Assembly (NCBI GenBank): GCA_035577985.1
Contig: DATJZY010000025.1
Location: forward strand, 66,229-130,228
Direction of reading: 5' to 3'
DNA from: Candidatus Eiseniibacteriota bacterium
GTDB taxonomy: Bacteria; Desulfobacterota; Binatia; DP-6
DNA length: 64,000 nucleotides
Below the pieces are notes generated by a model that saw nothing but the letters and a program-made list of their open reading frames with translations, had not been told where the DNA came from and did no database searches. Of the stretch, positions 41,730 to 58,799 are shown one piece after another. How positions within the stretch are numbered: position 1 is the first letter of the stretch; each line of letters starts with the position of its first letter. The position numbers were made by a program, and so were the translations under genes.

Positions 41730-42665
41730 ATGAGCCCTGGCGTCTCCGAGGCATGGCCGGCGCTTCCGCTCGAGGCGTGGAGCGACACCTACGCCACGCT
41801 CCACATGTGGTCGCAGATCGCCGGCAAGGTCCGCCTCGTGCAGAGCCCGTGGCTGAACCACTCCTGGCACGTGACGCTCTACGTGACCGCGCGGGGGCTG
41901 ACCACGTCGCCCATCCCGCACGGCGTACGCGCGTTCCAGATCGACTTCGACTTCATCGACCACCACGTCGCCGTCCGCGTGAGCGACGGCGGGACGGCGC
42001 GGGTGCCGCTCGAGCCGCAGTCGGTGGCGTCGTTCTACCGCCGCCTGATGGACGCGTTGGATGGGCTCGGCCTGCACGTCGACATCCGCACGCGGCCGAA
42101 CGAGGTGCCCGACCCGGTCCCGTTCGATCGCAACGAGGCCCAGCGCGCCTACGATCGGGAGTACGCGAACCGGTTCTGGCACGCGCTCGTCCAGGCCGAT
42201 CGCGTCTTCAAGATCTTCCGCGCGCGCTTCATCGGGAAGTGCAGCCCCGTGCACTTCTTCTGGGGCGCGCCGGATCTGGCGGTCACGCGATTCTCGGGAC
42301 GGCGCGCGCCGGAGCACCCCGGCGGCGTGCCCAATCTACCGGACTGGGTGACGCGCGAAGCGTACTCGCACGAGGTGAGCAGCTGCGGCTTCTGGGCCGG
42401 CGGCGGTGCGGTGCCGCACGCCGCGTTCTACTCCTATGCATACCCGGAGCCGCCGGGATTCGCGCAGGCCAAGGTCCGGCCGGGCGCGGCGTTCTACAGC
42501 ACCGATCTGCGTGAGTTCCTCCTGCCCTACGACGCCGTTCGCGAGGCCGAGGCGCCGGACCAGACGCTGCTCGACTTCCTGCAGTCCACGTACGAGGCCG
42601 CGGCGATCGCAGCCAAGTGGGATCGCGCCGCTCTCGAGCGCGCGGCCGAGCCGCACCGGCCGTGA
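41730..42665 (+). CDS. DUF5996-family conserved hypothetical protein
   Basis: N-terminus WPALPLEAWSDTYATLHMWSQIAGKVRL matches my recollection of DUF5996; 311 aa, GC3-biased. Confidence 0.5.
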   Translation: MSPGVSEAWPALPLEAWSDTYATLHMWSQIAGKVRLVQSPWLNHSWHVTLYVTARGLTTSPIPHGVRAFQIDFDFIDHHVAVRVSDGGTARVPLEPQSVASFYRRLMDALDGLGLHVDIRTRPNEVPDPVPFDRNEAQRAYDREYANRFWHALVQADRVFKIFRARFIGKCSPVHFFWGAPDLAVTRFSGRRAPEHPGGVPNLPDWVTREAYSHEVSSCGFWAGGGAVPHAAFYSYAYPEPPGFAQAKVRPGAAFYSTDLREFLLPYDAVREAEAPDQTLLDFLQSTYEAAAIAAKWDRAALERAAEPHRP

Positions 42666-43291
42666 GCAGATCGTACAACCAGGTTGCCGGCACGAGCCTC
42701 GAGCGCATCGCGGCCCTGAGCGACGGGCTCTTCGCCATCGCCATGACGCTGATCGTGCTCGAGATCCACGTCCCGGTGCGCGAGAGCCTCCACACCGAGG
42801 GTGAGCTCTGGTGGGCGCTGGTCGCGCTCGGCCCGCGCATGGTGACCTATCTCATGAGCTTCCTCACCCTCGGCATCTTCTGGGTCGGGCAGCAGACGCA
42901 ACTGAACCACTTCCGGCACGCGAACCGCCACCTCACCTGGATCCACCTGGCGTTCCTGGCCCTGGTCGCCTTGATGCCCTTTTCGACCGAGCTGCTGGCG
43001 GAGTTCATCACCTTCCGCACGGCGCTCCTGGTCTACTGGCTGAACGTCGTGTTCCTCGGCGTCGTGCTCTACGCGTCGTGGCGGTACGCGCGCGGGGCCG
43101 CGCTCTTGAGGCCGGAGACGACGGACGAGATCTCCGACGCCGTCGTGCGCCGCATCGCCGTCGCCCAGAGCCTCTATGCCGTCGGCGCGGCACTCTGCGT
43201 CCTCGGCACCGGGTGGAGCATCGCGTTCATCGTCCTCGTGCAGCTCAACTACGCGATCGCACCGCGCTTTCTGTCCGACGCCCTCGGTTAG
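42662..43291 (+). CDS. TMEM175/DUF1211-family membrane protein (putative K+ channel homologue)
   Basis: LERIAALSDGLFAIAMTLIVLEI (RxxxFSD-like signature helix) repeated in the second half (TELLAEFITF...); GTG start overlapping the upstream TGA. Confidence 0.6.
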   Translation: MSRSYNQVAGTSLERIAALSDGLFAIAMTLIVLEIHVPVRESLHTEGELWWALVALGPRMVTYLMSFLTLGIFWVGQQTQLNHFRHANRHLTWIHLAFLALVALMPFSTELLAEFITFRTALLVYWLNVVFLGVVLYASWRYARGAALLRPETTDEISDAVVRRIAVAQSLYAVGAALCVLGTGWSIAFIVLVQLNYAIAPRFLSDALG

Positions 43292-46123: not shown

Positions 46124-47278
46124 ATGTCGGAGCGCGTGCGGGTCGGCGTCCTCTACGGCGGACGCTCCGGCGAGCACGAGGTCTCGCTTCGCTCCGCTGC
46201 GACGGTGATTGCCGCGCTCGACACGTCGCGCTTCGAGATCGTGCCCATCGCGATCGGCAAGGACGGTCGCTGGCGCACGGGCATCGACAGCCTGCGACTT
46301 CTGGACGAAGCGCAGCGCGACTTGCATCCGCTTCCCGAACACGGCGTCGAGGTGACGATCGCACCCGAGCCGACGCGGCGGGCACTCGTGCCGCTCGGTG
46401 GCGGCGGGCCGATCGTGCTCGACGTGATCTTCCCCGTGCTACACGGCACGTACGGCGAGGACGGAACCATCCAGGGCCTCCTCGATCTCGCGGATCTGCC
46501 GTACGTCGGCTCCGGCGTCCTGGCGTCGGCCGTCGGCATGGACAAGCCCCTCATGAAGGCGGTGCTGCGCGACGCCGGGCTGCCGGTGTGCCGTTGGATC
46601 GTGGCGCGACCGCGCGAGGAATCGCCCGACGACATTGCGGCGCGCGTGCACGCCGAGATCGGCTTCCCGTGCTTCGTGAAGCCGGCCAACCTGGGATCGT
46701 CGGTCGGCATCGTGAAGGTGAAGGCGGCGGGCGCACTCGCCGCCGCCGTCGCGGAGGCGGGCTCGTACGACGTCAAGATCATCGTCGAAGCCGGCGTCGA
46801 CGCGCGCGAGCTCGAGTGCGCGGTCATGGGAAACGAGTCACCCGAGGCGTCGGGGATCGGCGAGATCGTACCGTCGCACGAGTTCTACGACTACGCCGAC
46901 AAGTACGTCGACGGCGGCGCGCAGGTGCTGATACCGGCGCCGATCCCCGCCGAGGTCGCGGAGGAGGCGCGCGCGCTCGCGATCCGCACGTTCCGGGCCG
47001 TCGACGCCGCCGGTCTCGGGCGCGTCGACTTCTTCCTCGAACGCCGCACGAACCGCCTCTACGTCAACGAGATCAACACCATGCCGGGGTTCACGCGGAG
47101 CAGCCTCTATCCCCGGCTGTGGGAGGCCGCCGGGCGGCCGATCGGCGCCGTGGTGGAGCGGCTCGTCGACCTCGCCATCGCTCGCCACGCTGCCCGGGCG
47201 TCGCGCCGGCTCTCGTTCGCGCCCCCGACCGGTGCGCCGGCTAACGCCGCGCGACGATCGTCGGGCGGTAGCCTTTGA
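46124..47278 (+). CDS. ddl: D-alanine--D-alanine ligase
   Basis: VGVLYGGRSGEHEVSLRSA, HGTYGEDGTIQGLLDLADLPYVGSGVLASAVGMDK, ATP-grasp NEINTMPGFT. Confidence 0.9.
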   Translation: MSERVRVGVLYGGRSGEHEVSLRSAATVIAALDTSRFEIVPIAIGKDGRWRTGIDSLRLLDEAQRDLHPLPEHGVEVTIAPEPTRRALVPLGGGGPIVLDVIFPVLHGTYGEDGTIQGLLDLADLPYVGSGVLASAVGMDKPLMKAVLRDAGLPVCRWIVARPREESPDDIAARVHAEIGFPCFVKPANLGSSVGIVKVKAAGALAAAVAEAGSYDVKIIVEAGVDARELECAVMGNESPEASGIGEIVPSHEFYDYADKYVDGGAQVLIPAPIPAEVAEEARALAIRTFRAVDAAGLGRVDFFLERRTNRLYVNEINTMPGFTRSSLYPRLWEAAGRPIGAVVERLVDLAIARHAARASRRLSFAPPTGAPANAARRSSGGSL

Positions 47279-48431
47279 CCCGTAGCCCCTTGGCGAGACG
47301 GTCGGCGCTCTCGCGGCGCGGGAAGTCGCCCATCACGAGCGCCTGACCCACGACGCGTCCGCGGAAGCCGCTTCGCGCGAGCCGATTGCGCGTCGTCTCG
47401 GCCTCCCGCCGCGTCTTGTATGGCCCCAGCCGCACGACGTAGCGGGTCGAGCCGAGCTCGGACGACACGTCGGCCGTCGCTTCGGGCGCGCGGGTGCGCG
47501 ATTTCGGGATGCTCGCCACGCGGACGCCGCTCTTGCCGTCGCGAGTGGCGAGATCCTCGTCGCCCTCGGTGGTGACGCCACGGCCTCGCGAGCGGGATGC
47601 CGACGCCATGATCGTCGGCGAGCCCTCCATCGGCTCGCCGAACCCGAACGCGAACAGGCGTCGAGCATCGCCCCAGAGATCGCTCGAGCCGAGGAGGGCG
47701 ATCACGATCTCGCGCCCTCCGGAGGTGGCCGCCCCGACGAAGCAGCGGCCCGCCGCCCGCGTGTAGCCCGTCTTGCCGATGACCGGGTACGTGTAGCCGG
47801 TGAGGAGACGGTTGTGGGAATGGAGCGTCACCGTCTGCACCCGCTTCGACTGGAGCGGCACCTTGATCCGAGGCGTCTCCAGAATCTCACGGAACTCGCG
47901 GACATGGAGCCCGTAGCGGAAGATCTTGGCGAGGTCGCGCGCGGTCGAGACGTGCCCATCGGCGGTCAGGCCGTGAGGATTCACGAAGTGGGAGCCCTGG
48001 GCGCCGATCGCGTGCGCCTTCGCGTTCATGCGGGTCGCGAAGGCCGACTCCGATCCCGCGAGCCCTTCGGCGACGACGGTGGCGGCGTCGTTCGCCGAGT
48101 TCAGCAGGACGGCGTACAGCAGGTCGCCCAGGGCCATGCGATCGCCCGGTCGCAGGCCAATCTTCGAGGGCGCCGTCTCCGACGCATCGACGCTCACCGC
48201 GAAGTAATCGTCGAGCCGTCCACTCTCGAGGGCGATGATCGCGGTCAGGACCTTCGTCGTGCTCGCGGGCGGCAGCGGCCAGTCGGCACCACGCTCCCAC
48301 AGCGTCTCGCCCGACGCGGCGTCGACCACGATCGACGCGCGCGCCGTGACGTTCGGGTCCGCAGCGTGGGCGCGCGGCGCGAACGCCGCGGCCGCGGCGC
48401 CGAGCACCAGCACAGCCACCCTACCCCACAT
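47241..48431 (-). CDS. D-alanyl-D-alanine carboxypeptidase (peptidase S11) with C-terminal SPOR domain
   Basis: Signal peptide; active-site ASTTK (SxxK), SAND (SxN), KTGYT (KTG); C-terminal YVVRLGPYKTRREAE...GYRPTIV SPOR-like domain; 3' end overlaps ddl by 38 nt (convergent). Confidence 0.8.
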   Translation of the reverse strand: MWGRVAVLVLGAAAAAFAPRAHAADPNVTARASIVVDAASGETLWERGADWPLPPASTTKVLTAIIALESGRLDDYFAVSVDASETAPSKIGLRPGDRMALGDLLYAVLLNSANDAATVVAEGLAGSESAFATRMNAKAHAIGAQGSHFVNPHGLTADGHVSTARDLAKIFRYGLHVREFREILETPRIKVPLQSKRVQTVTLHSHNRLLTGYTYPVIGKTGYTRAAGRCFVGAATSGGREIVIALLGSSDLWGDARRLFAFGFGEPMEGSPTIMASASRSRGRGVTTEGDEDLATRDGKSGVRVASIPKSRTRAPEATADVSSELGSTRYVVRLGPYKTRREAETTRNRLARSGFRGRVVGQALVMGDFPRRESADRLAKGLRVKGYRPTIVARR

Positions 48432-48506
48432 CCACCACCTCCGGACCCGGACTCGACCCGTACCCCCAGACACTTAGCGCATTATTGCCTGCGGTGCGAC
48501 GAAGGC

Positions 48507-49094
48507 TCAACCCGTGACGTCGTCCTCCGCGGCCTCGGAGGTGCCGTGATACGAGCCCTCCCGGTGCTCGACCACGACCACGCCGGCGTTGCGGACGACC
48601 CGCCCGGCAGGTGGCCAGGCACCCGTCACGTGCCAGTAGGCGGCCATCATGGCGGCCCCGTGGCTCACGACGACGATCTCGCCCGCCGGGTCTTCCCGGC
48701 TGAGGCGATCGAGCACGGCGCCGACCCGGGCGGCCACCTCGACCAGAGTCTCGCCGCCTTCGGGACGCCACAGCCAGTACCGTGCGGCATCGAAGTCCGG
48801 GCGGGGGGTCGTGTAGGGCAAGCCGGCGAGGCGCCCGTAGTCCCGCTCGCGCAGGTCCTCTTCGACGACCGCGGCGAGCCCGAGTCGAGCGGCGAGGATG
48901 GCCGCGGTCTCGCGGGCGCGGGCGTACGGGCTGGTCACGATCCGCCGTGGCTCGTAGCGGCTGCCGATCCAGCCGGCGGTCGTGCCCGCCTGCTCGCGAC
49001 CCCGCTCGGTGAGGCCGACCGCCGGCGTCGCCGTGAACACGCGATCCCGGTTGCCCTCGCTTTCGGCGTGGCGCACGAGGAGCAGGCGACCCAC
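48507..49094 (-). CDS. Histidine phosphatase (phosphoglycerate mutase-like) family protein
   Basis: LLLVRHAESEGN (RHG-type motif); 195 aa. Confidence 0.8.
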   Translation of the reverse strand: MGRLLLVRHAESEGNRDRVFTATPAVGLTERGREQAGTTAGWIGSRYEPRRIVTSPYARARETAAILAARLGLAAVVEEDLRERDYGRLAGLPYTTPRPDFDAARYWLWRPEGGETLVEVAARVGAVLDRLSREDPAGEIVVVSHGAAMMAAYWHVTGAWPPAGRVVRNAGVVVVEHREGSYHGTSEAAEDDVTG

Positions 49095-49098
49095 GGCC

Positions 49099-50166
49099 CT
49101 AGGCCTCGCGATTCACGCGGTCGATCAGTTGGCGCAGCCGCCCGGGTTGCCCCCACACGAGCGGGAAGACGAGCCGGGGCAGATCGTTCAGCTCGGGCTC
49201 CTGCTCGCGCTCGTCGGCCAGCGCGTGCGTCTGCACGATGTCGCCTCCGTGCGCGAAGAGGTCCTTGAAATCCCGTCCGAGGTCGGCGACCAGCGCCGGC
49301 GCGATCGGGCGCGTGAGGCGCATCACGAACTTCGGCCCGACGTTCCGCGACGAGTGGTAGACGCGGTAGAAACCGGCGATCTCCTCGACCGCCTCCTCGA
49401 CCGACGTCGTCACCTTGAAGAGCGACAAGTCGGACTCGGAGATGAGCTTCTTGCGCAGGAGGTGGTCCTCCACGTAGCGCAGCCATGTCTTCCAGAACGT
49501 GCCGCGCGGGCTGTCGATGAAGACGATCGGCAGCGGCCGGCCCTTGCCGGTCTGGATGAGCGTCAGCACCTCGAATCCCTCGTCCATGGTGCCGAAGCCG
49601 CCGGGAAAGAGCGCGACCGCGTCGGCCTCCTTCACGAACATGAGCTTGCGCGTGAAGAAGTAGCGGAAGGTCACGAGCTTCGGGTCGTTCGAGATGAACT
49701 CGTTGGCGCTCTGCTCGAACGGCAGGCGGATGTTCGCGCCGAAGCTGCGCTCGCGACCGGCACCCTCCTGGCACGCGCGCATGATGCCGTCGCCGCCGCC
49801 CGTGATGACCATGTAGCCGCGGTCGGCGACCTGGTGGGCGAACTCGCGCGCAGTCTTGTAGGCGGGCGCCGTCGCCTCGGTTCGTGCCGAGCCGAAGCAG
49901 CTCACCTTGCGCACGTGGCGATAGGGCCCGAACACCTTGAAGGCGTAGCGCAGCTCGCGCAGCGCGGCGTTCAGGAGCTTCAGATCGCCGGTGCCCGTGC
50001 CGTCGCGCAGGAGCTTCAGCGCCGTTTCGACCATCTCCCGCACGAACGCCTCTTCGCGCGCGAGCGCCTGATCGCCCTGGATGCGCGGCAGCAGCTCACC
50101 CAGCACGTCGCGACGCCGCCGTCCGCGAGGTTTCTGTCGTTCGGTCTTCTCGGAGGGCACCGCCAT
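49099..50166 (-). CDS. LOG-family (TIGR00730; cytokinin riboside 5'-monophosphate phosphoribohydrolase-like / nucleotide nucleosidase) protein, long form
   Basis: ITGGGDGIMRA and PGGFGTMDE Rossmann-like LOG motifs; start ambiguous (50166 or 50190). Confidence 0.75.
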   Translation of the reverse strand: MAVPSEKTERQKPRGRRRRDVLGELLPRIQGDQALAREEAFVREMVETALKLLRDGTGTGDLKLLNAALRELRYAFKVFGPYRHVRKVSCFGSARTEATAPAYKTAREFAHQVADRGYMVITGGGDGIMRACQEGAGRERSFGANIRLPFEQSANEFISNDPKLVTFRYFFTRKLMFVKEADAVALFPGGFGTMDEGFEVLTLIQTGKGRPLPIVFIDSPRGTFWKTWLRYVEDHLLRKKLISESDLSLFKVTTSVEEAVEEIAGFYRVYHSSRNVGPKFVMRLTRPIAPALVADLGRDFKDLFAHGGDIVQTHALADEREQEPELNDLPRLVFPLVWGQPGRLRQLIDRVNREA

Positions 50167-50246
50167 CTTCAGCAATCCACCATCCGGCATTGTGCCGGGA
50201 ATCCCCGCGGGTTGCGAGGCAGCCACGCCGCTTCTATGGTCGACGC

Positions 50247-51365
50247 GTGACGCCGCGCGAGCTGCTTCGATCCATCCGCGACGAGCTGCGGAGCCAATTC
50301 CTCGAGCGCACCGAGCTGATCGACGGCGCGCTGCTCGGGCTCCTGGCCGGACAGCACGTGCTCGTGATCGGACCGCCGGGCACGGCGAAGTCGATGCTCG
50401 CCGACGAGGTGTGCCGGCGCATCACGGGCGCGCGATATTTCCAGTGGCTGCTGACGCGCTTCACGACGCCCGAGGAGCTCTTCGGCGCCGTCAGCCTGAA
50501 GGCGCTCGAGGCCGACGACTACCGGCGCCTCACGACCCACAAGCTGCCCGAGGCGCACGTCGCCTTCCTGGACGAGGTGTTCAAGGCGAGCTCGTCGATC
50601 CTGAACACCATCCTGACGCTCATGAACGAGCGCCGCTTCCACAACGGGCGCGAGGTGACGAGCGTCCCGCTGCTGACGCTGTTCGGCGCCTCCAACGAGC
50701 TGCCCGAGGACGACGAGCTGCTGGCGCTCCAGGACCGCTTCCTGCTTCGCTACGAGGTCCGCTACATCGAAGAGGACTTCCGGTTCCTGAAGCTGCTCCA
50801 GGCGAAGGGCCCCGACACCCGGACGACGATGACGCTCGCCGAGCTCGAGACGGCGCGCGCCGAGGCGGCGGCCCTGCCCGTGCCGGGTCAGGTGCTTCGC
50901 GCCGTGACCGACGTCCGGCGCGAGCTCGGCCGCAAGCAGGTGGTCGCGTCCGATCGGCGTTACGCGCAGGCGATCGGCCTCCTGCGCGCGCACGCCTACC
51001 TCGGTGGCCGCGAGGCCGTCGCCGAGGGCGACGTCGCGGTGCTCGAGCACGTCCTGTGGCGCGATCCCGCCGAGCGCCAGGCGGTGCGCGACACCATCCG
51101 CGAGCAGCTCCACGGCTACGAGGACGAGGCGCAGGTCCTGCTCTTCCAATCGCGCGAGCTGCGCGACTACGCGCTGCGGAGCTGGGAAACGACCGAGCTG
51201 CAGAGCCGTGCCGCCGTCGAGGCGCACACGAAGCTCCGCAGCATCGTCGGCAAGGTCGAGACGATCCTCTCCGACGCACAGTCGACCGGGCGCGCGACCA
51301 GCAAGGTCGAGTCCGTGCGCGACGAGATCCTGCAGATCCAGCGCGACATGCTGACGCGGCTCTGA
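50247..51365 (+). CDS. ravA: MoxR-class AAA+ ATPase, RavA-like
   Basis: GPPGTAKS Walker A; YFQWLLTRFTTPEELFG and LPEAHVAFLDEVFKASSSILNTILTLMNERRF align closely with my recollection of E. coli RavA; start could be TTG 50190 or GTG 50247. Confidence 0.75.
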   Translation: MTPRELLRSIRDELRSQFLERTELIDGALLGLLAGQHVLVIGPPGTAKSMLADEVCRRITGARYFQWLLTRFTTPEELFGAVSLKALEADDYRRLTTHKLPEAHVAFLDEVFKASSSILNTILTLMNERRFHNGREVTSVPLLTLFGASNELPEDDELLALQDRFLLRYEVRYIEEDFRFLKLLQAKGPDTRTTMTLAELETARAEAAALPVPGQVLRAVTDVRRELGRKQVVASDRRYAQAIGLLRAHAYLGGREAVAEGDVAVLEHVLWRDPAERQAVRDTIREQLHGYEDEAQVLLFQSRELRDYALRSWETTELQSRAAVEAHTKLRSIVGKVETILSDAQSTGRATSKVESVRDEILQIQRDMLTRL

Positions 51366-52906
51366 TGGCTCGCGCGCAGGCCCGCCGTGTCCGCAGCGTG
51401 CTCGTGCCCCCCAACGAGCACTGCTGGATCGAGAGCGACGGGTACGACCGGAGCGCGTTCGCCGAGCTGGTCGCCGAGAGCCCGTCGCTGGCGGCGCTGG
51501 TCGAGAGCGGTCGCGTCCTCGTGCCGCACTTCCGCGAGCTGCTGGAGGACGTCTTCTGCCTCCTCTTCAAGCTGAACCCGGTCTGGCGCACGGCCGACGA
51601 AGTGGCGCCGTCGGCCGCGCTCGGCGGCGCCCTGCTCGCGGGGCTCCGGGATCACCCGCTCGTCGAGCACGTGCGCAGCGAGACGCAGCTCGACGAGGCG
51701 CAGGCCGGGCTCGGCACCGTGCTGATCGGCGAGGAGCTGCTGCGGCTCTTGAAGCGCGAGGACATCCTCGCGCGCGGCGACCTGCTGGACCTCTGGGACC
51801 TCGACCGCCAGGAGAACGAGCTGCGACGCCGCGCGGAGGAGCTGGCGGCGATCGAAGAGGCCGGCGACGCGTCCGAGCGCGAGCAAGACGAGACGGCGCG
51901 CGCGGCGGAGGTCGCGGCCGCGATGCTGCGGCAGAAGGCGCATCGCGTCGGCGCTCGCCTCGCCGAGATGCCGGCGCGCGCGAAGAGCGCTCTGCCCGCC
52001 GCGACGGCCGGGCTCCAGCGCCAGCTCGCCGAGAGCCGCGACCACGCGCAGCGCTGGGGCGCGGGCGTCGGCGCCGGCGGCCGCGTCTCCGCCGGACGTC
52101 GCATCGAGCTCGGAAAGCGCCTCGCCACGAACCCGAAGCTGAAGCGCCTGGGCGCGCTCGTCGGGCGGATGCGGCAGCTCGCTCTCGCGCTCCGCTCGCG
52201 CACGACCGAGCGCCCGAGCGACGAGGTGTTCGCCGTCGAGCTCGCCGGGACGATCGAGCGGCTCCTGCCGCCCGAGCTGCTGGCGGTGCGCCATCCCGTC
52301 CTGCGGCGCGACTTCGCGCGCCGGCTCGTCGAGGGGCGGCTCCTCTCCTATCACCTGCGCGGCGTCGACGAGCGCGGTCGCGGCCCCATGATCGTGTGCC
52401 TCGACGGCTCGTCGTCCATGGCCGGCGACAAGGAGGTATGGGGCAAGGCCGTTGCCTTGACGCTGCTCGAGATCGCGCGCCGGCAGCGCCGGCTTTTCCG
52501 CTTCGTCTGCTTCTCGTCGAAGGAGGCGCCGCTCTACACGCTCGACTTGAATCCGCGCGAGCACCACGCCGTGCAGGTCGATCGGACGCTCGACCTGGCC
52601 GAGTACTTCCCCGGCGGCGGCACCGACTTCGAGGCGCCGATCGACGCCGCGCTCGCGACCCTGGCCGAGGCGCGCTATCGCCGCGGCGACGTCGTCCTCA
52701 TCACCGACGGCGAGTGCCGTGTGTCGCCCGAGTGGCTGGCGCGCTTCCGGCGCGAGAAGACGCGCCTCGAGTTCTCGCTGTTCTCGATCCTCATCGACGT
52801 CGGCGGTACGAGCGACGCCGAGACGCTGCGCGAGCTGTCGGATCGCCTGACGAGCGTCTCGCAGCTCACCGACGACGCCGCGCGGGAGCTGTTCCTCCGC
52901 CTGTGA
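51365..52906 (+). CDS. viaA: ViaA-like VWA-domain protein (RavA partner)
   Basis: TGATG overlap with ravA; C-terminal VWA with MIDAS MIVCLDGSSSMAG; long N-terminal helical region as in ViaA. Confidence 0.7.
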   Translation: MARAQARRVRSVLVPPNEHCWIESDGYDRSAFAELVAESPSLAALVESGRVLVPHFRELLEDVFCLLFKLNPVWRTADEVAPSAALGGALLAGLRDHPLVEHVRSETQLDEAQAGLGTVLIGEELLRLLKREDILARGDLLDLWDLDRQENELRRRAEELAAIEEAGDASEREQDETARAAEVAAAMLRQKAHRVGARLAEMPARAKSALPAATAGLQRQLAESRDHAQRWGAGVGAGGRVSAGRRIELGKRLATNPKLKRLGALVGRMRQLALALRSRTTERPSDEVFAVELAGTIERLLPPELLAVRHPVLRRDFARRLVEGRLLSYHLRGVDERGRGPMIVCLDGSSSMAGDKEVWGKAVALTLLEIARRQRRLFRFVCFSSKEAPLYTLDLNPREHHAVQVDRTLDLAEYFPGGGTDFEAPIDAALATLAEARYRRGDVVLITDGECRVSPEWLARFRREKTRLEFSLFSILIDVGGTSDAETLRELSDRLTSVSQLTDDAARELFLRL

Positions 52907-54018
52907 CGGGGCCCCTCGCCGGCATCCGCGTGCTCGACCTCGCCGACCAGACGGGCGCGTTCGCCGGCAAGCTGCTCGCGGGCCTCGGCGCCGACGTCGT
53001 CCTCGCCGAGCCGCCGGGCGGGAGCCCGCTCCGCACGATCCCGCCCTTCTGGCAGGGCGCGCCCGACCCGGAGCGGAGCCTCTTCTTCTGGTTCTACGCC
53101 GCCGGCAAGCGAAGCGTGGTCGCCGATCCCGCGCAGACGGCCGCGCTCGCGGCCGCCGCCGACGTCGTCGTCGAAACGGGCTTCCCGAGCCGTGCCGACG
53201 CGTGGCGTGCCGCGCACCCGCGCCTCGTCGTCGCCTCGATCACGCCGTTCGGGCACGCGGGGCCGTACCGCGAGTGGCGCTCCTCGGACACCGTCGCGCA
53301 GGCGATCGGCGGGCTCGCGCACGTGAACGGCCATCCCGACGGGCCGCCGCTCCGCGCGCTCGGCCTCCAGGCCTATCACCAGGCCGGCGTCTTCGCGGCG
53401 ATCGGCGTCCTGGCGGCGCTCCTCGCGCGCGAGACGTCGGGACGCGGCCAGCTCGTCGACGTGAGCCTCGAGGCCGCGGTCGCGGGATCGCTCGAGCACG
53501 TGCCCGGCTTCTTCCACCAGAGCGGGCTCGTGGCGCGCCGGCAGGGGACGCTGCACTGGACGCGGTTCTTCCGCGTCGGGCGCTGCAAGGACGGCTGGGT
53601 CATGCACTGCACGCTCGGCGACTGGACGTCGCTCTTCGAGTGGATGCGCGCCGACGGCTTCGGCGCCGCGTTCGAGGATCCCGCCTTCGAAGGGACGATG
53701 CACCGCCAGAAGAACGCCGAGGCCCTGTTCGACGAGCTGGATCGCTGGGCCGCCGGCTACACGGTCGCCGAGCTCTACGAGGGTGCGCAGCTCCGGCGGC
53801 TGCCGTACGCCGCCGTGCGGCCGCCCGAGGCGCTGCTCGCCGATCCGCACCTCGCCGAGCGCGGCTTCTTCGTGCCGATCGAGCACCCCGACCTCGGCCT
53901 GACGCTCCCGTATCCCGGCGCGCCCTTCGTCATGAGCGAGACGCCGTGGCGCGTCGCGCGGCCACCGCGCGTGGACGAGCACGGCCCCCAGGTGCACCGC
54001 GACTGGCGCGTCACCTGA
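52903..54018 (+). CDS. Family III CoA-transferase (CaiB/BaiF)
   Basis: GTGA overlap with viaA stop; N-terminus GPLAGIRVLDLADQTGAFAGKLLAGLGADVV typical of CaiB/BaiF. Confidence 0.8.
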   Translation: MTGPLAGIRVLDLADQTGAFAGKLLAGLGADVVLAEPPGGSPLRTIPPFWQGAPDPERSLFFWFYAAGKRSVVADPAQTAALAAAADVVVETGFPSRADAWRAAHPRLVVASITPFGHAGPYREWRSSDTVAQAIGGLAHVNGHPDGPPLRALGLQAYHQAGVFAAIGVLAALLARETSGRGQLVDVSLEAAVAGSLEHVPGFFHQSGLVARRQGTLHWTRFFRVGRCKDGWVMHCTLGDWTSLFEWMRADGFGAAFEDPAFEGTMHRQKNAEALFDELDRWAAGYTVAELYEGAQLRRLPYAAVRPPEALLADPHLAERGFFVPIEHPDLGLTLPYPGAPFVMSETPWRVARPPRVDEHGPQVHRDWRVT

Positions 54019-54916
54019 CCGCGGTCCAGCGAAACGGCGCCAGGAGCTGCCCCGTCCAGGTGGTCGGGAAGCGCGGCATGCCGGCGATGCCGACGGGGCC
54101 CGCGAAACCACGATCACGCGGCCGGAAGAAGGTGCCGAACACGAGATCCCACGTGATCAGGATCGCGCCGTAGTTCGCGTTGCCTTCGCGCGGGTCGGTC
54201 GAGTGATGCCAGCGATGGAGCTCCGGTGTGCTGAAGAGCCAGCTCGCGACGCCCGAGCGGAGGTCGACGTTGCAGTGCTGGAGCTGTCCGTAGCAGGACG
54301 AGAAGATCGAGTAGAGCAGGAAGACGCGCGGCGGGATGCCGAGCAGGAAGAGCGGCAGCGTCTGGCAGGCGACCAGCGCCGCGAGGTCGAGCGGATGGAA
54401 GCGCGTCGCGTTCAGCCAGTACAGACGCGGTGCGCTGTGGTGGACGGCGTGGAGCCGCCATGCCCACGCGCGCTCGTGCGTCACGCGGTGGAACCAGTAG
54501 TGCCCGAACTCCGCGATGAGAACGGCCAGGAAGAGCTGCGCGGCGATCGGCAGCGCGGACGGCCAGAGCCCGGTGCCGAGCCGGTTCGCCAGCCATGGGG
54601 AGCACACGACCGCCAGGCCACCGGCGACGGCCAGGCCGAGCTGGCTCGCCGCCGTCCCCGTGACGACGAGGTGCGTGACGTCGGTGCGCACGTCGCCGTG
54701 GGCGCGGCCCCACTCGGCGCGATGCGGGAATGCGCGCTCGAGCCCGGCGATGAGCGCGTACGTGACGATGAGGAACGCCACGTACACCGCACCGTCGATG
54801 GCCGGTGTGCGGGGCGCGTCAGGCGCGGTCGCCCAGATCGCGATCGCGGCCGTGCCGATCGTGAAAGCGGGGAAGAGCCCCCACGCGACGGCGGCTCGGA
54901 GCGCGCGATCCACCAC
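54011..54916 (-). CDS. Fatty-acid hydroxylase/sterol desaturase superfamily membrane protein
   Basis: Three His boxes HYWFHRVTHE, HAVHHS, HRWHHS within a polytopic region; start inferred as GTG about 54916 (no in-frame ATG); track fuses it with unrelated upstream frame 54011..56815. Confidence 0.65.
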   Translation of the reverse strand: MVDRALRAAVAWGLFPAFTIGTAAIAIWATAPDAPRTPAIDGAVYVAFLIVTYALIAGLERAFPHRAEWGRAHGDVRTDVTHLVVTGTAASQLGLAVAGGLAVVCSPWLANRLGTGLWPSALPIAAQLFLAVLIAEFGHYWFHRVTHERAWAWRLHAVHHSAPRLYWLNATRFHPLDLAALVACQTLPLFLLGIPPRVFLLYSIFSSCYGQLQHCNVDLRSGVASWLFSTPELHRWHHSTDPREGNANYGAILITWDLVFGTFFRPRDRGFAGPVGIAGMPRFPTTWTGQLLAPFRWTAVR

Positions 54917-54921
54917 CGGCG

Positions 54922-56799
54922 TCAGCCGAGGGCGGCGAGCAACTGCTTCAGATCGTCGTAGATGGATCGTGTTTCGCCCAGCAGCGGCATCCGCGTTGCG
55001 TCGGGAATGATCTTCCGGGCGGATCGCGATTTCAAGCGGTGCTGGAGGGTGCTCAGGCGCCTGACCGCCTTCTTCACGACGTTTTTCTGCTTCTTCGCCC
55101 CACCGAGGCCTTCGGCTGCCTGCAGCTTCTCGCGCACCTTCGCCGCGATCATGACGAGACCGTTCTGCAGTCGCCCCAGGTCGCTCGCGGCCTGCAGCCG
55201 CGTCACGAGGGCGTCGAGCCGGCATTCGATCGACTCGAAGGTCGCAACGGCTCGGCAGCCCGGGAGCGTCGTGGTGCTCGTCGTGGTCGACGTCGACGTC
55301 TCGCAGGTCTCCAGTGGATCGGGGGCCCGCTCGTAGGATCCGATGTCGCACCGCTTCCCCACGGGTCGCGTGACTCCACGCTGGTCGACGATCTCGCACG
55401 CGTCGCCACCGCTGCCGACCGGTCCGGGGCTTCCCGCTTCGATCGCCGGGCTGCACGACAGAAGGACGTGCAGCGCCGTCGGACCTCCTTCCACGACGGC
55501 GAGCTCGTCGAGCATCGGATCGACACCCGTGACGTCGCCCGGGCCTGCGAGCCGACTGCAGTCGGCCGAGTTCTCGATGAGCGAGTAGCCGTCCGATACC
55601 AGCGTCTGCGGGTTCCCGACCGATTCCGTGAAGCAGTCGGGTCCGGCGGTGGGGAGCGGCGGGTCTGCGGTCGTGGTGTTGTCCGCAATGATCGTGTTCC
55701 GAACGTGGAAGGTCCCTGAATCGAGGGCGACTCCTCCGCCACGTGCTGCGGGTACGGTCCCGACGAGCGGCAGCGGCGGCGATCTGTCGACGGCATTGCG
55801 TGCGATGGTGACGTTGCTGAGGCTCCACGACCCTCCGCCCTGCGCCGAGATCCCGCCGCCCTCGGCGCGTCCCAACCAGTCGACGAATACGGCGTTCGAG
55901 CTGATCGTGCTGTTGACGATCGTGAAGGTGGCGCCGCCCGCCTCGCCAATGCCGCCTCCGAGGCCGTCGCCGTTCGGGACGGAGATCGTGTTGCCGACGA
56001 TGGTCGAACGCTCGATCGTCCAGGTGGCCATTCCCCGATCCGAGATGCCGGCACCCTCGGCGTTTGCGTCGATCGAACCGGCTGTGTTCCCACCGATCGT
56101 CGACTCGACGATGGTGACGTTCGCGGGAGCGCTCGCCGAAATGCCCCCTCCATAGACCGACCCCGTCGACACCGTCACGGAGTTGACCACGAGCCGACTG
56201 CGCGTGATCGTGACCGTCGCGGCGGCGGACAGCTGGATCGCGCCACCCTCGGCCGCTTGGTTGTTGCTGAAGCTGGAGTCCGTGATCGCTACGCTCGGGC
56301 TCGCTCCCGCTACGAAGAGTCCGCCGCCGAGACACCCGTCGCCGCAGCGGTTGGCGTTGACCTGGCTGCTCACGAGCGCGAGCTTTCCGCCATCGACCCG
56401 GATGCCGCCGCCATGATCGCCAGGCTCCGTCAGGCGACCGCCCATCAGCACGACGTGCTCGAACGTCAGATCGCCCGACGGTGCGACCTCGACGATGCGA
56501 AACGAAGCCACTGCGCCCGGCGCCCGCGCGATGCTGGAATCCGGCCCGCCGCTCACCGATGCCGATCCGACGATCGTGATCTTGCTGGTGACGACCGGCA
56601 GCCCATTTACCCCGTTGTCCGCTGCGGGAAGCGAGTAGACCTCTCCGGGTGCGAGGTTGATCGTGTCGTCCTCCGCGCTCGCGTTGGCCGCAGCGATGGC
56701 GGCGACCAGCGCCGGGACGTCGCCCGCCGGAACGTCGACGACCGCAGCTACGGCGGCGCGCGAGACGATCACGGCGATGAGGGCGACGATCGAGCGCAC
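54922..56799 (-). CDS. Secreted right-handed beta-helix protein ending in CDIGSYE motif, Thr-rich linker and Lys-rich C-terminal helical tail
   Basis: Signal peptide MRSIVALIAVIVSRAAVA; repeated GG..NT/NS..I/V beta-helix rungs; CDIGSYE; TSTSTTTSTTTLPG; KKQKNVVKKAVRRL tail. Confidence 0.75.
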   Translation of the reverse strand: MRSIVALIAVIVSRAAVAAVVDVPAGDVPALVAAIAAANASAEDDTINLAPGEVYSLPAADNGVNGLPVVTSKITIVGSASVSGGPDSSIARAPGAVASFRIVEVAPSGDLTFEHVVLMGGRLTEPGDHGGGIRVDGGKLALVSSQVNANRCGDGCLGGGLFVAGASPSVAITDSSFSNNQAAEGGAIQLSAAATVTITRSRLVVNSVTVSTGSVYGGGISASAPANVTIVESTIGGNTAGSIDANAEGAGISDRGMATWTIERSTIVGNTISVPNGDGLGGGIGEAGGATFTIVNSTISSNAVFVDWLGRAEGGGISAQGGGSWSLSNVTIARNAVDRSPPLPLVGTVPAARGGGVALDSGTFHVRNTIIADNTTTADPPLPTAGPDCFTESVGNPQTLVSDGYSLIENSADCSRLAGPGDVTGVDPMLDELAVVEGGPTALHVLLSCSPAIEAGSPGPVGSGGDACEIVDQRGVTRPVGKRCDIGSYERAPDPLETCETSTSTTTSTTTLPGCRAVATFESIECRLDALVTRLQAASDLGRLQNGLVMIAAKVREKLQAAEGLGGAKKQKNVVKKAVRRLSTLQHRLKSRSARKIIPDATRMPLLGETRSIYDDLKQLLAALG

Positions 56800-56954
56800 G
56801 CTCCTCCCTACTCACGGCTCCCGCCGAGGTGTCAACGCTTTTCTGCTCGACGTGTCACGATCGGCACAGGCCCAGGGCAAAAAGGGATGCACGGCTTGTA
56901 ACGCCTCCCGAGCCACGGGATGGTGCCGAACGCTTCGATGGAGCGTGGGATCGC

Positions 56955-58799
56955 ATGATCAGCCTGGTTCGACCACCGTGCGACGAGGGCGTCGTCCGCG
57001 GCGCACCCGAGACGCCCGGATGTGCCTCGCACGCCAAACGCTGGGTCCTGCTGGCGACCATACTGGGCTCGAGCGTCGCGTTCCTCGAGGCGTCGGTGAT
57101 CAACGTCGCCCTGCCCGCCATCCAGACGGCGCTCGGCGCCTCGATGGCGGGGATGCAGTGGGTCGCCAGCGCGTACACGCTCCTGCTCGCCGCGCTGACC
57201 CTGGCCGGCGGCGCGGCGGGTGACCGCTTCGGCACGCGACGCCTGTTCGCGGCGGGGACGGCCATCCTCGGCCTCGCCTCCGTCGGGTGCGGGCTAGCGA
57301 CGACGTCGTCGCAACTGATTGCGGGCCGTGCGATCCAGGGCTGCGGCGCCGCGCTGCTCGTGCCGAACAGCCTCGCGCTTCTCAGCGCATCGTTTCCGAC
57401 TGCCGAGCGCGGCCGCGTGATCGGCACCTGGTCCGCCTTCACCGCCCTCACGGGCGCCGTGGGCCCGATTCTCGGAGGGTGGCTCGTCGACCTGGTGTCG
57501 TGGCGGGCCGGATTCCTGTCGATCGTGCCGCTCGCGATCGCGACCCTGGTGGTGACACACCTGCGCGTGCCGGACCCGCCGCGGCGACGGGTCGTGCGCG
57601 CGGTCGACTGGTGGGGAGCCGCGCTCGCGACGGCGGGGCTCACGGGCTTCGTCTTCGCGATCATCGCGTCCGGGTCGAGCGGGACGCCGCCGGGGCTGCC
57701 GATCGCCGCCCTCGTCGTCGGGATCGCCGGTGTCGCCGGCTTCGCGGTCCTCGAATCGCGGTCGCAAGCGCCCATGGTCCCGCCGGCGTTGTTTCGTTCG
57801 GGGACGTTTCGCGGCGTGAACCTGCTCACCTTGCTGCTGTACTTCGGGGTGAGCGCGGCCTTCTTCGTGCTCCCCTTCAACCTGATCCAGGTCCAGGGCT
57901 ACTCCGCGACGCTGACGGGCGCGGCCTATCTCCCGTTCGCCCTCCTCGTCGGCGGGCTGTCGCGCTCGGTCGGCACGCTCGGCGATCGACTCGGCGTGAA
58001 GCCGCTCCTCGTCGTGGGGCCCCTCGTCGCCGCCGCCGGCCTCGCCCTGTTCGCGTTGCCGCGCATCGGCGGGTCGTATTGGACGACCTTCTTCCCGCCC
58101 ATGCTGCTGACGGGCATCGGGATGGCGCTCACCGTCGCACCGCTGACCTCGACGGTCATGGGAACGGTCACCCCGAGCGAGGCCGGCGTCGCCTCCGGCG
58201 TCAACAACACGGTCGCGCGTGTGGCGGCGCTGCTCGCCGTCGCGATCGTCGGCACGCTCACCCTGCCGCTGTTCTCCCGGGCCCTCACCCGCCGGCTCGA
58301 GCCGGTCGCCGTGACACCGGCGGTCCGCCAATTGCTCCTCGCCGAGCGTCGCAGCCTGGCCGACATCGCGATCCCCGCGTCGATCGCCGGCAGCGAGCGG
58401 CCGGTGCTCCAGCGCCTCGTCGGCGACGCGTTCGTCGAGAGCTTCCAGTGGGTCGCCATCATCAGCGCGTGCTGCGCGCTCGCAGGTGCGATCGGCGCCG
58501 CTGCGTTGATCCAGGTCGTCGCACCCGCCGGCGCGGACGACGCGACGGCGGCGTGTGGCCACCTGGATCAGATCCGCGAGCTGCCGGTCGGTGAGCTGAG
58601 CTGCCCGGAGTGCCTGGCCCGTGGAGACGCGTGGGTCCACCTCCGGCTCTGCCTCACCTGCGGGCACGTCGGGTGCTGCGACTCGTCGAAGAACCGTCAC
58701 GCGTCGGCGCACTTCTGGGCCACCAGGCACCCGATCGTCCGGTCGCTGGAGCCCGGCGAGGATTGGCGCTGGTGCTACGTCGACGAGATCGTCGTGTAG
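56955..58799 (+). CDS. MFS transporter (14-TM, DHA2/EmrB-like) fused to C-terminal UBP-type zinc-finger (zf-UBP) domain
   Basis: MFS motif A region (GDRFGTRR), 14 hydrophobic segments; C-terminus CPECLARGDAWVHLRLCLTCGHVGCCDSSKNRHASAHF...WRWCYVD matches zf-UBP Cys/His pattern. Confidence 0.75.
   Translation: MISLVRPPCDEGVVRGAPETPGCASHAKRWVLLATILGSSVAFLEASVINVALPAIQTALGASMAGMQWVASAYTLLLAALTLAGGAAGDRFGTRRLFAAGTAILGLASVGCGLATTSSQLIAGRAIQGCGAALLVPNSLALLSASFPTAERGRVIGTWSAFTALTGAVGPILGGWLVDLVSWRAGFLSIVPLAIATLVVTHLRVPDPPRRRVVRAVDWWGAALATAGLTGFVFAIIASGSSGTPPGLPIAALVVGIAGVAGFAVLESRSQAPMVPPALFRSGTFRGVNLLTLLLYFGVSAAFFVLPFNLIQVQGYSATLTGAAYLPFALLVGGLSRSVGTLGDRLGVKPLLVVGPLVAAAGLALFALPRIGGSYWTTFFPPMLLTGIGMALTVAPLTSTVMGTVTPSEAGVASGVNNTVARVAALLAVAIVGTLTLPLFSRALTRRLEPVAVTPAVRQLLLAERRSLADIAIPASIAGSERPVLQRLVGDAFVESFQWVAIISACCALAGAIGAAALIQVVAPAGADDATAACGHLDQIRELPVGELSCPECLARGDAWVHLRLCLTCGHVGCCDSSKNRHASAHFWATRHPIVRSLEPGEDWRWCYVDEIVV

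Follow-up and report, generated by a model that had tools for sequence, protein, structure and literature searches.

A short RavA-like/ViaA-like pair in a family III CoA-transferase operon of an uncultured Binatia bacterium

Analysis of a 64,000-nucleotide stretch of DNA (the window) from an uncultured soil bacterium of the class Binatia (Candidatus Binatia) points to an operon in which genes for a RavA-like MoxR AAA+ ATPase and a ViaA-like VWA protein precede the gene for one subunit of a family III CoA-transferase. The reading that we favor, with about even confidence, is that the pair represents a separable, general-purpose MoxR/VWA module that was drawn into an operon specific to this lineage. 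A dedicated chaperone-client link to the transferase is only a minority hypothesis, because close relatives have lost the pair cleanly.

Gene organization and the divergent promoter region

The locus consists of two divergent gene sets. On the plus strand are the RavA-like gene (from a GTG at 50247 to 51365; 372 aa), the ViaA-like gene (51365–52906; 513 aa) and the CoA-transferase gene coatA, encoding CoATa (from a GTG at 52903 to 54018; 371 aa). On the minus strand the LOG gene (49099–50166; 355 aa) starts from an ATG with a GGTGGA ribosome-binding site and heads an operon that continues, 4 nt downstream, with a His_Phos_1 histidine phosphatase gene (48507–49094; 195 aa; PF00300, E 1.6e-40) and ends with a D-Ala-D-Ala carboxypeptidase gene (47241–48473, minus strand; Peptidase_S11 plus SPOR domain, from Pfam scan and synteny), which is convergent with ddl (46124–47278). 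This layout, with LOG divergent from ravA-viaA-CoA-transferase, agrees with an initial annotation of the locus and is confirmed by a GC3 frame plot, the translations, and Pfam and NCBIfam scans; the gene identities proposed there are right at the superfamily level, and LOG was correctly named, although the coordinates assigned to it (49099–50226) are those of the maximal open reading frame. The in-frame GC3 is 0.9–0.97 for LOG, ravA-like, viaA-like and CoA-transferase genes alike and orthologues of all four in the same order number in the hundreds, so the four-gene arrangement is not a chance pattern of open reading frames.

It is well supported, at the level of sequence, that the plus-strand genes would constitute one translationally coupled three-gene operon with a single promoter. 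First, the viaA ATG overlaps the ravA TGA as ATGA. Second, the CoATa GTG overlaps the viaA TGA as GTGA, exactly as initially annotated. Third, scanning for promoters and terminators revealed neither signal inside ravA-viaA-coatA, including any that could serve the CoA-transferase gene by itself. Finally, the coatA stop overlaps by 8 nt the stop of a convergent OlsE-like fatty-acid hydroxylase gene (54011–54916, minus strand; PF04116; NF052566 at 224 bits, under the cut-off), which delimits the operon on its 3′ side in this genome.

The 80-nt divergent promoter region between LOG and ravA (50167–50246) contains a putative ravA promoter, with a −35 TTGCGA (50212–50217), a 17-nt spacer and a −10 TATGGT (50235–50240), as well as a minus-strand −10 for LOG, CACAAT (ATTGTG on the plus strand, 50189–50194). 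These motifs and their spacing are kept in 37 distinct orthologous intergenic regions, the −35/−10 pair being fixed 6–8 nt from the start codon, and the conserved sigma-70-like elements probably drive the ravA operon; a generic sigma-70 scan, which is too strict, reported neither element in the region. Because 6 nt separate the end of the −10 from the ravA GTG, the operon mRNA is probably leaderless.

Properties of the encoded proteins

The product of 50247–51365 is well supported as a short, LARA-less MoxR ATPase of the RavA subfamily and not as a RavA equivalog. It matches PF20030 (E 8.5e-59), PF07728 and PF17868, and aligns with E. coli RavA in the PDB (E 1e-53, residues 10–299 against 14–313), but its NCBIfam equivalog score is 207 bits against a cut-off of 681. 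The AF2 model (pLDDT 91.8) comprises an AAA+ core, a lid and a C-terminal three-helix bundle (274–371), and its top fold matches are 3nbx, 6q7l and 4upb. The initial annotation correctly described the protein as shorter than E. coli RavA (372 versus 498 aa) and left open whether it has a LARA domain; the model contains no beta-rich insert and the LARA domain is absent. LdcI binding by RavA is mediated through that domain, and the link to LdcI therefore cannot apply here. The short form without LARA is the common one, with 2928 representative clusters at E<=1e-30.

Similarly, the ViaA-like protein is well supported as a ViaA-type VWA/MIDAS partner but not as a ViaA equivalog, the NF008230 ViaA model scoring 80 bits over residues 253–449 against a cut-off of 500, so that treating either protein as the equivalog, as was done initially, is not sustained. 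Its AF2 model has a helical N-terminal domain followed by a C-terminal VWA domain (PF13519), and Salmonella ViaA is 30% identical across residues 214–448. The MIDAS is intact (D347-x-S349-x-S351, T420, D448), its residues are invariant among 27 aligned orthologues, and the best fold match of the model is NorD of the NorQD complex.

CoATa matches PF02515 over its full length (E 7e-70), and among PDB entries 9fn0_A resembles it most (E 4.6e-50). It had been called CaiB-type, which is incorrect: it carries Tyr158 where the catalytic Asp would be, and the Asp column is Tyr in every aligned CoATa orthologue, as it also is in 9fn0_A and in the N-terminal halves of the fused proteins. A second PF02515 gene, coatB (63334–64000, plus strand), is truncated by the end of the window; it is 9.3 kb further downstream than coatA, and an alpha/beta-hydrolase gene (62441–63325) precedes it by 9 nt. 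Its product, CoATb, keeps the Asp within the motif YSYSDLA and is 74% identical (tblastn) to the CoATb of locus L001, whose best PDB match is 9fn0_B (E 1.8e-66); the split between Tyr in the CoATa type and Asp in the CoATb type is strict in the alignment. In most relatives CoATb follows CoATa by 9–66 nt, and in L002–L004 the two are fused in a single 765-aa reading frame. CoATa is thus well supported, from these alignments, as the predicted Asp-less subunit of a two-subunit BbsEF-type family III CoA-transferase, and CoATb would be its catalytic partner, apparently displaced in this genome. No bss or bbs beta-oxidation genes were found near the window's CoA-transferase genes by Pfam scan.

LOG matches PF03641 and PF18306, scores 98.7 bits against the TIGR00730 cut-off of 96.35, and displays the GGGxGxM and PGGxGTxxE motifs. 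In the PDB it comes closest to the type-II LOGs 5zi9, 5wq3 and 1wek (E 1e-31 to 1e-35), and its core is extended by about 85 N-terminal and about 90 C-terminal residues. The histidine phosphatase and Peptidase_S11/SPOR genes downstream are syntenic in loci of the window's own Binatia clade (clade A), and LOG looks to belong to an unrelated unit of cell-wall flavor, tied to ravA merely by the common promoter region. That region is conserved between LOG and ravA throughout clade A, which is the one point in favor of a functional LOG-RavA axis. In such an axis RavA-ViaA would either partner or regulate LOG, a nucleotide N-glycosidase, much as in the LdcI-RavA cage. We regard this as highly improbable, and the distribution of LOG adjacency largely refutes it. 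LOG neighbors ravA only in clade A, and is beside ravA-viaA neither in about 65 species outside it nor in seven sampled non-Binatia neighborhoods of short RavA forms; moreover, where ravA-viaA has been lost, LOG diverges from coatA instead. In addition, the RavA-like protein lacks the LdcI-binding domain, and LOG proteins are not decarboxylases, as the PDB names of the LOG matches also indicate. The parallel with LdcI drawn initially is thus a coincidence of annotation history.

Distribution of the pair and its relationship to the transferase

The initial annotation took the arrangement as a hint that RavA-ViaA may have a chaperone-like remodelling role on the CoA-transferase. In its fuller form, the RavA/ViaA-like pair would be a dedicated ATP-dependent factor for assembly or re-activation of the interlocked CoATa/CoATb heterodimer, with an acidic transferase residue as the docking site of the ViaA MIDAS, by analogy with CbbQO and Rubisco or NorQD and nitric-oxide reductase. 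The coupled operon with its one promoter, the invariant MIDAS and the structural match to NorD are in keeping with this. The dimers of family III CoA-transferases are interlocked, and a heteromeric enzyme would have to pair its subunits correctly. Of the species genomes of clade A, 14 were informative and 13 of these show ravA-viaA-CoATa synteny; ViaA is directly upstream of CoATa, with a gap of <=65 nt, in 50 of the 70 metagenome loci that were informative (these are not de-replicated, and relatedness inflates counts in both directions). The arrangement is therefore not unique to this genome. The linkage is seen again in another deep clade and holds down to about 50% ViaA and 55–59% CoATa identity; ViaA adjoins CoATa in L151 and L155, whereas in L020, L036, L063 and L081 the two are separated by a single polysaccharide-deacetylase-like gene.

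Nonetheless, several observations weaken this proposal. First, a monophyletic sub-clade (L086, 87, 88, 91, 95 and 101), sister to the window lineage, has lost ravA-viaA in cis but retains coatA, and the same promoter there abuts the coatA start codon. Second, across 80 species-level Binatia genomes the ravA-viaA pair is constant and its neighbors belong to at least five unrelated contexts (including M24 peptidase/MR_MLE/opine-DH/ABC, SBP/FAD-oxidoreductase/SDR/UbiD, and CDO_I), with no CoA-transferase within 10 kb in about 55 of the 80 species. Third, the distant coatA-coatB loci L153, 156, 157, 160 and 162 have no ravA-viaA in the 6–8 kb upstream. Fourth, none of the seven non-Binatia neighborhoods contains CoA_transf_3. 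Fifth, cofactor insertion is a recurring theme of MoxR/VWA pairs (iron, for NorQD), but family III CoA-transferases are not known to have a metal cofactor or an inhibited-state problem. Finally, no paper in the literature searched brings MoxR, VWA and CoA-transferase together, and the arrangement accordingly still appears undescribed, as first noted. Dedicated chaperoning of the transferase is thus rather unlikely in our estimation.

A different possibility is that a phage-derived or defense-type MoxR-vWA pair was inserted before coatA as a mobile or conflict module. The best Pfam model, PF20030 (bpMoxR), derives from conflict systems of the MoxR-vWA-beta-propeller type, PHROG matches span the full length of both proteins, jumbo phages carry homologues of the pair, and further homologues lie on phage- or ICE-like contigs (L170, L171). 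However, PADLOC returned no matches, the pair has neither a beta-propeller nor an effector partner and is not flanked by an integrase or by repeats, its GC and GC3 are those of the host, and inheritance across Binatia appears vertical (213 relatives in species genomes, with a coherent tree). We consider this origin improbable.

In the separable-module interpretation, the ViaA-like MIDAS domain may serve as the substrate adaptor, as in other MoxR/VWA pairs, and a RavA-like hexamer as the ATP-driven motor that remodels the target protein. The main target would not be encoded at the locus; lineage-specific gene order would have placed the pair in the CoA-transferase operon, giving co-expression and no obligate chaperone-client relationship. 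The presence of the pair in jumbo phages and the abundance of the short RavA form are also in keeping with a separable module. Several considerations count against this interpretation: the tight ViaA-CoATa junction and the persistence of the linkage at low identity, since such conservation usually signals a shared pathway; seven further species in which ravA has as its divergent neighbor yet another family III transferase, a third one, with the Asp; and the compatibility of the loss in cis with a copy elsewhere in the sister-lineage genomes.

Comparison with known systems

One close parallel is E. coli RavA-ViaA, with which the window pair shares the AAA+ core/lid subfamily (fold search TM 0.70–0.72 on the query), a triple-helical C-terminal element, and a directly downstream VWA partner with helical N-domain and intact MIDAS, in a two-gene unit. 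In contrast, the window pair has no LARA, making the LdcI cage impossible, falls far under both equivalog cut-offs, and belongs to Binatia rather than an enterobacterium; E. coli RavA-ViaA is also a stand-alone bicistron, whereas the window pair would be co-transcribed with a CoA-transferase subunit. LOG resembles the type-II LOGs (cytokinin riboside 5′-monophosphate phosphoribohydrolase family) in core domain, motifs and TIGR00730 score, but differs in its terminal extensions and in sharing its operon with genes for a SPOR-domain PBP and a histidine phosphatase.

The transferase compares best with BbsEF, the benzylsuccinate CoA-transferase (9fn0): the subunits are paralogous and reciprocal best matches (CoATa with chain A, CoATb with chain B), Tyr and Asp occupy the catalytic position accordingly, and the subunit genes are adjacent or fused in relatives of the window genome. 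Identity is only moderate, however, bss/bbs genes are not nearby, and the window's subunit genes are separated. Principles shared by MoxR/VWA pairs are set out in two papers (PMC9976466, PMC4660213). Like NorQ/NorD with cNOR and CbbQ/CbbO with Rubisco, the window locus places a MoxR ATPase and a VWA-MIDAS protein in an operon with an enzyme gene, and NorD is the top structural match of the ViaA-like protein. It differs from them in that the CoA-transferase neighbor occurs in a minority of Binatia genomes only, that the pair can be lost in cis with the transferase kept, and that the enzyme has no known metal cofactor or inhibited state.

Gene organization and promoter region

The window is about 70% G+C, and its genes were placed by third-position GC content (GC3) and translation, and with a position-specific GC log-odds caller. 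An in-frame GC3 of 0.9–0.97 backs the genes mapped at the ravA-viaA-coatA/LOG locus, which were assigned to families with Pfam and NCBIfam. The plus strand carries genes for a RavA-like MoxR ATPase (GTG start, 50247–51365), a ViaA-like VWA protein (51365–52906), and a family III CoA-transferase, CoATa, the product of coatA (GTG start, 52903–54018); on the minus strand lie LOG (49099–50166), a His_Phos_1 gene (48507–49094) and a PBP/S11+SPOR gene (47241–48473). These calls and coordinates agree with the initial annotation with a single exception, the start of LOG, which is better set at 50166, where an ATG is preceded by the ribosome-binding site GGTGGA; orthologues align from residue 1 of this version. 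Elsewhere in the window, a gene for a DUF5996 protein (41730–43291, plus strand; E 1.5e-144) precedes one for a homologue of TMEM175-type potassium channels.

The plus-strand genes are tightly packed. The ravA and viaA genes share an ATGA stop/start overlap (51363–51367), viaA and coatA a GTGA overlap (52903–52906), and the coatA stop overlaps by 8 nt (54011–54018) with that of a convergent gene for an OlsE-like hydroxylase, so that there is no space for an intrinsic terminator. From ravA through to the coatA stop, a scan picked up no promoter-like or terminator-like element, in line with coatA being part of the operon.

A generic sigma-70 and terminator scan of positions 48400–55000 gave nothing relevant, and the promoter was seen instead through cross-species conservation. 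The spacer between LOG and ravA is 80 nt long (50167–50246), and its motifs are kept in 37 distinct orthologous regions, with the pattern TTGCGAG, 16–18 nt, TATCCT, TATCTT or TATGGT, 6–8 nt, and the start codon. The putative ravA promoter thus located on the plus strand has its −35 element at 50212–50217 and its −10 element at 50235–50240, ending 6 nt before the GTG at 50247; a CACAAT sequence upstream of LOG on the opposite strand is also conserved. We infer that the spacer holds back-to-back promoters, and, because the −10 element is so close to the GTG, that the ravA mRNA is leaderless and begins with this start codon. A palindrome with 6 bp arms, CCGGCAttgTGCCGG (50184–50198), overlaps the putative LOG −10 element.

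The RavA-like, ViaA-like and LOG proteins

The RavA-like ATPase belongs to the RavA subfamily of MoxR AAA+ proteins. Its MoxR AAA+ core and AAA_lid_8 are recognized by PF20030 (E 8.5e-59) and PF17868 (E 1e-19), phmmer aligns its residues 10–299 with residues 14–313 of the 498 in E. coli RavA (E 1e-53), and its top Foldseek matches (4upb, 3nbx and 6q7l) are structures of E. coli RavA. It does not reach the cut-off of the RavA equivalog NF010054 (207.4 bits against 681, over profile positions 15–332 of 498). In E. coli RavA the triple-helical domain carries LARA, the LdcI-binding insert, whose presence or absence here had been left for confirmation. It is absent, as follows from several observations. 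First, the protein is only 372 aa long, and its alignment stops at RavA residue 313. Second, in an AlphaFold2 model built with 38 homologues (pLDDT 91.8), the AAA+ alpha/beta domain and the lid are followed by three long C-terminal helices alone (274–371), and no beta-rich insert was found. Third, the fold matches have a TM score of 0.70–0.72 on the query versus 0.55–0.60 on the target.

The short, LARA-less form is the common one among RavA-like proteins, a point that is of use for annotation: a search of 1.84 billion library representatives gave 2928 clusters that match the short ATPase at E≤1e-30, and nearly all of the best 150 of these are 365–400 aa long. LARA is dispensable for RavA to bind ViaA in E. 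coli (PMC9489729). At two Dadabacteria-like loci (L166:6001–7152 and L167:2972–4123) a T2SS G-K pseudopilin operon has its end overlapped by a gene for a short RavA-like protein, near which no VWA partner was found.

The ViaA-like protein (513 aa) has a VWA domain by PF13519, with a complete MIDAS metal site (D347, S349, S351, T420 and D448) that is invariant among 27 orthologues. An AlphaFold2 model places helices over residues 29–275, then a VWA fold at approximately 340–513, a two-domain layout shared with E. coli ViaA, in which the VWA domain follows an N-terminal domain of about 320 aa that is mostly helical (PMC9489729). The protein is only distantly ViaA-like: it scores 80.1 bits against the ViaA equivalog NF008230, whose cut-off is 500, and its 30% identity to Salmonella ViaA is confined to residues 214–448. 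Its best match among solved structures is NorD within the NorQD complex. An 884-aa protein (P0107) considered as a natural ViaA–CoA-transferase fusion was rejected, as its C-terminal half is an out-of-frame, low-complexity read-through.

The LOG protein scores just over the TIGR00730 cut-off (98.7 against 96.35 bits), contains TGGGDGIM and PGGFGTMDE, corresponding to the GGGxGxM and PGGxGTxxE motifs, and has type-II LOG structures as its best matches. The initial annotation had set this gene beside the classical link between RavA and lysine decarboxylase; that connection falls away, and annotators should read a LOG gene next to RavA as having nothing to do with lysine decarboxylase.

The CoA-transferase and its partner subunit

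CoATa is matched over its full length by CoA_transf_3 (PF02515; E 7e-70, residues 5–360 against profile positions 1–365 of 366). Its description as CaiB-type is refuted by a score of 44.3 bits against the CaiB equivalog PRK03525, which has a cut-off of 413, and by a PDB search in which the best match is chain A of the benzylsuccinate CoA-transferase BbsEF (9fn0_A, E 4.6e-50), with CaiB structures ranking far beneath. At the catalytic-Asp column, the position of Asp169 in Frc, CoATa has Tyr158 (within LQAYHQAG). The same column is also Tyr in 9fn0_A and is Asp in all other solved family members in the alignments.

A second family III gene, encoding CoATb, starts at 63334 and continues past the window end. 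CoATb keeps the Asp, shares 74% identity with the second transferase at the related locus L001, and has 9fn0 chain B as its best PDB match (E 1.8e-66), followed by the formyl-CoA transferase 10uh_A. In most relatives the two genes are separated by only 9–66 nt, and at three loci (L002–L004; e.g. L002:9569–11866) they are fused as a single 765-aa ORF, a single-chain form of a normally two-subunit, interlocked enzyme. The division of residues is strict across all loci aligned, with Tyr in CoATa orthologues and the N-terminal half of the fused form, and Asp in CoATb orthologues. The reciprocal matches to the two chains of 9fn0, the Tyr/Asp split, and the adjacent or fused genes in relatives all indicate that the transferase is a two-subunit enzyme of the BbsEF type, of which CoATa is the non-catalytic subunit; BbsEF likewise pairs two paralogues, only one of which has the catalytic Asp. 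A gene that would otherwise be labeled CaiB/BaiF can thus be annotated as the non-catalytic subunit of a two-subunit, sometimes fused enzyme. Unlike the BbsEF context, no bss or bbs genes were found in the window flanks or at related loci.

The two genes lie about 9.3 kb apart in the window, separated by unrelated genes for the OlsE-like hydroxylase, a 625-aa protein, an MFS transporter, an SDR, a DUF374 protein and an alpha/beta-hydrolase. The 625-aa protein (54922–56799, minus strand) is predicted to be secreted and has glycine/serine-rich beta-helix-like repeats, a TSTSTTTSTTT linker, a basic helical C-terminus and no Pfam match; a 273-aa protein of similar flavor lies between the two transferase genes in L001. 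The MFS_1 transporter (56829–58799, plus strand) has a C-terminal zf-UBP zinc finger (PF02148, E 7e-12), a combination that is unusual among bacterial transporters. In relatives, CoATb is followed by PurU, a formyl-THF deformylase (80–93% identical across clade A, the window's own Binatia clade; cluster c23; L001:12848–13735), and a small APS-kinase-like gene. The PurU neighbor and the 10uh_A match are a possible hint at formate or formyl-CoA as a substrate.

Distribution of the combination and possible targets of the pair

The organism belongs to Candidatus Binatia, as judged from its protein homologues. A ViaA alignment compared with species-representative genomes identified 213 relatives, and the loci of the best 80, almost all Binatia metagenome-assembled genomes, were analyzed by tblastn and protein clustering. 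Within clade A (L005–L019, with a ViaA identity of 67% or more) the genes run Ddl>, PBP<, HisP<, LOG<, ravA>, viaA>, CoATa>, CoATb>, PurU>, and 13 of 14 informative genomes keep it, three of them with one or two genes inserted between viaA and CoATa; L009 has another gene downstream. The synteny is therefore not peculiar to the window's genome. In the other approximately 65 species (ViaA 46–54% identical) the ravA-viaA pair is constant and its neighbors represent several unrelated metabolic contexts. A Tyr-type CoATa lies about 1 kb downstream, past a polysaccharide-deacetylase-like gene, at L020, L036, L063 and L081, and seven species have a third, Asp-bearing family III transferase divergent from ravA; only about 23 of the 80 species carry a family III transferase of any kind no more than 10 kb from the pair. 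In a midpoint-rooted neighbor-joining tree of ViaA, the two deepest clades are made up of loci linked to a CoA-transferase, and there are none in the large remaining clade. Beyond Binatia, seven neighborhoods of short RavA-like genes, sampled with a profile built from distant, short RavA-like proteins, include a VWA partner in five cases, and CoA_transf_3 or LOG in none. The suggested co-occurrence with CoA-transferase and LOG thus holds in clade A and fails for LOG outside it and for both in the non-Binatia sample; the ravA-viaA/CoA-transferase combination is lineage-restricted and facultative. No LOG gene adjoins the pair in any of the approximately 65 species outside clade A, and a functional axis between LOG and RavA, to which their divergent arrangement in clade A might point, is very improbable; such a partnership was rejected on this distribution together with the absence of LARA.

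The linkage was also surveyed from the other side, with a CoATa alignment against metagenome contigs that gave 70 informative loci; the contigs were not de-replicated and the counts are therefore indicative. ViaA is directly upstream of CoATa (gap of at most 65 nt) at 50 of these loci and 1–5 kb away at four (54 of 70 in total), LOG is directly divergent from CoATa with no intervening ravA-viaA at six, and about 10, mostly 52–58% identical to the window and with 6–8 kb of upstream sequence present, have no ViaA. At six loci without the pair (L086, L087, L088, L091, L095 and L101) the −35/−10 elements are kept, 6–7 nt before the coatA start, and in the CoATa tree these form one sub-clade nested within the ravA-viaA-containing clade and sister to the window lineage. 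The retained promoter and the single nested sub-clade mark one clean secondary loss of ravA-viaA, and conservation of the promoter with and without the pair implies that coatA in the window is expressed from the putative ravA promoter. Both ravA and coatA begin with GTGACG in the window, and this microhomology could have mediated the deletion. The loss shows that coatA can persist without the pair in cis, and the resulting natural experiment in Binatia, with one operon containing ravA-viaA and a sister lineage lacking it, makes the question of whether the pair acts on the downstream enzyme directly testable.

What, then, might the pair act on? The initial annotation saw a hint of a chaperone-like role on the transferase, and a specific form of this proposal is that LARA-less RavA and ViaA are dedicated to the ATP-dependent assembly or re-activation of a family III CoA-transferase that is interlocked and heteromeric, with one active site. 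The linkage to coatA is tight and fairly deep, which argues for the transferase as the target, and we entertain this reading tentatively, as rather unlikely overall. Evidence against an obligate link comes from the varied neighborhoods of the pair in most Binatia, its having been cleanly lost from the sister lineage, the existence of coatA-coatB loci without it, the absence of the association in the seven non-Binatia neighborhoods, and the occurrence of full-length homologues of the pair in jumbo phages and PHROGs. We consider the chances about even that ravA-viaA is a separable general module, co-expressed with coatA but not dedicated to it; were the pair a passenger only, the arrangement would be ordinary operon drift. 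The full-length RavA-like and ViaA-like homologues are found in phage- or ICE-like contigs (L170 and L171) and in jumbo phages (OR602862, NC_009760 and MG065691), and match phrog_19600 and phrog_24053; ORF063 of Bacillus phage 0305phi8-36 carries the annotation 'putative metalloprotein chaperonin subunit'. An origin of the pair in phages or in conflict systems is nevertheless improbable, with PADLOC giving no matches, a result by which ravA-viaA was also rejected as a defense system.

Each of the parts falls into a known family, and the combination of ravA-like and viaA-like genes with a BbsEF-type subunit is undescribed in the searchable literature, where nothing was found that treats MoxR, VWA and CoA-transferase together. 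Known MoxR/VWA clients include Rubisco, nitric-oxide reductase, CO dehydrogenase and the E. coli respiratory complexes; to our knowledge clients are established in a handful of cases only, and the cellular role of RavA-ViaA is unsettled. If the pair were a dedicated factor for the transferase, it would represent a new client class for MoxR/VWA remodelers and the first known accessory factor of family III CoA-transferases. In the mechanism we infer for the pair, the MIDAS of the ViaA-like protein would serve as the adaptor, with a hexamer of the RavA-like protein as the motor, by analogy with NorQD and CbbQO (PMC9976466, PMC4660213). At three loci (L061, L065 and L070) an acyl-ACP-desaturase-like gene (PF03405, di-iron) lies between ravA and viaA, an arrangement reminiscent of the metal-center clients of other MoxR/VWA pairs.
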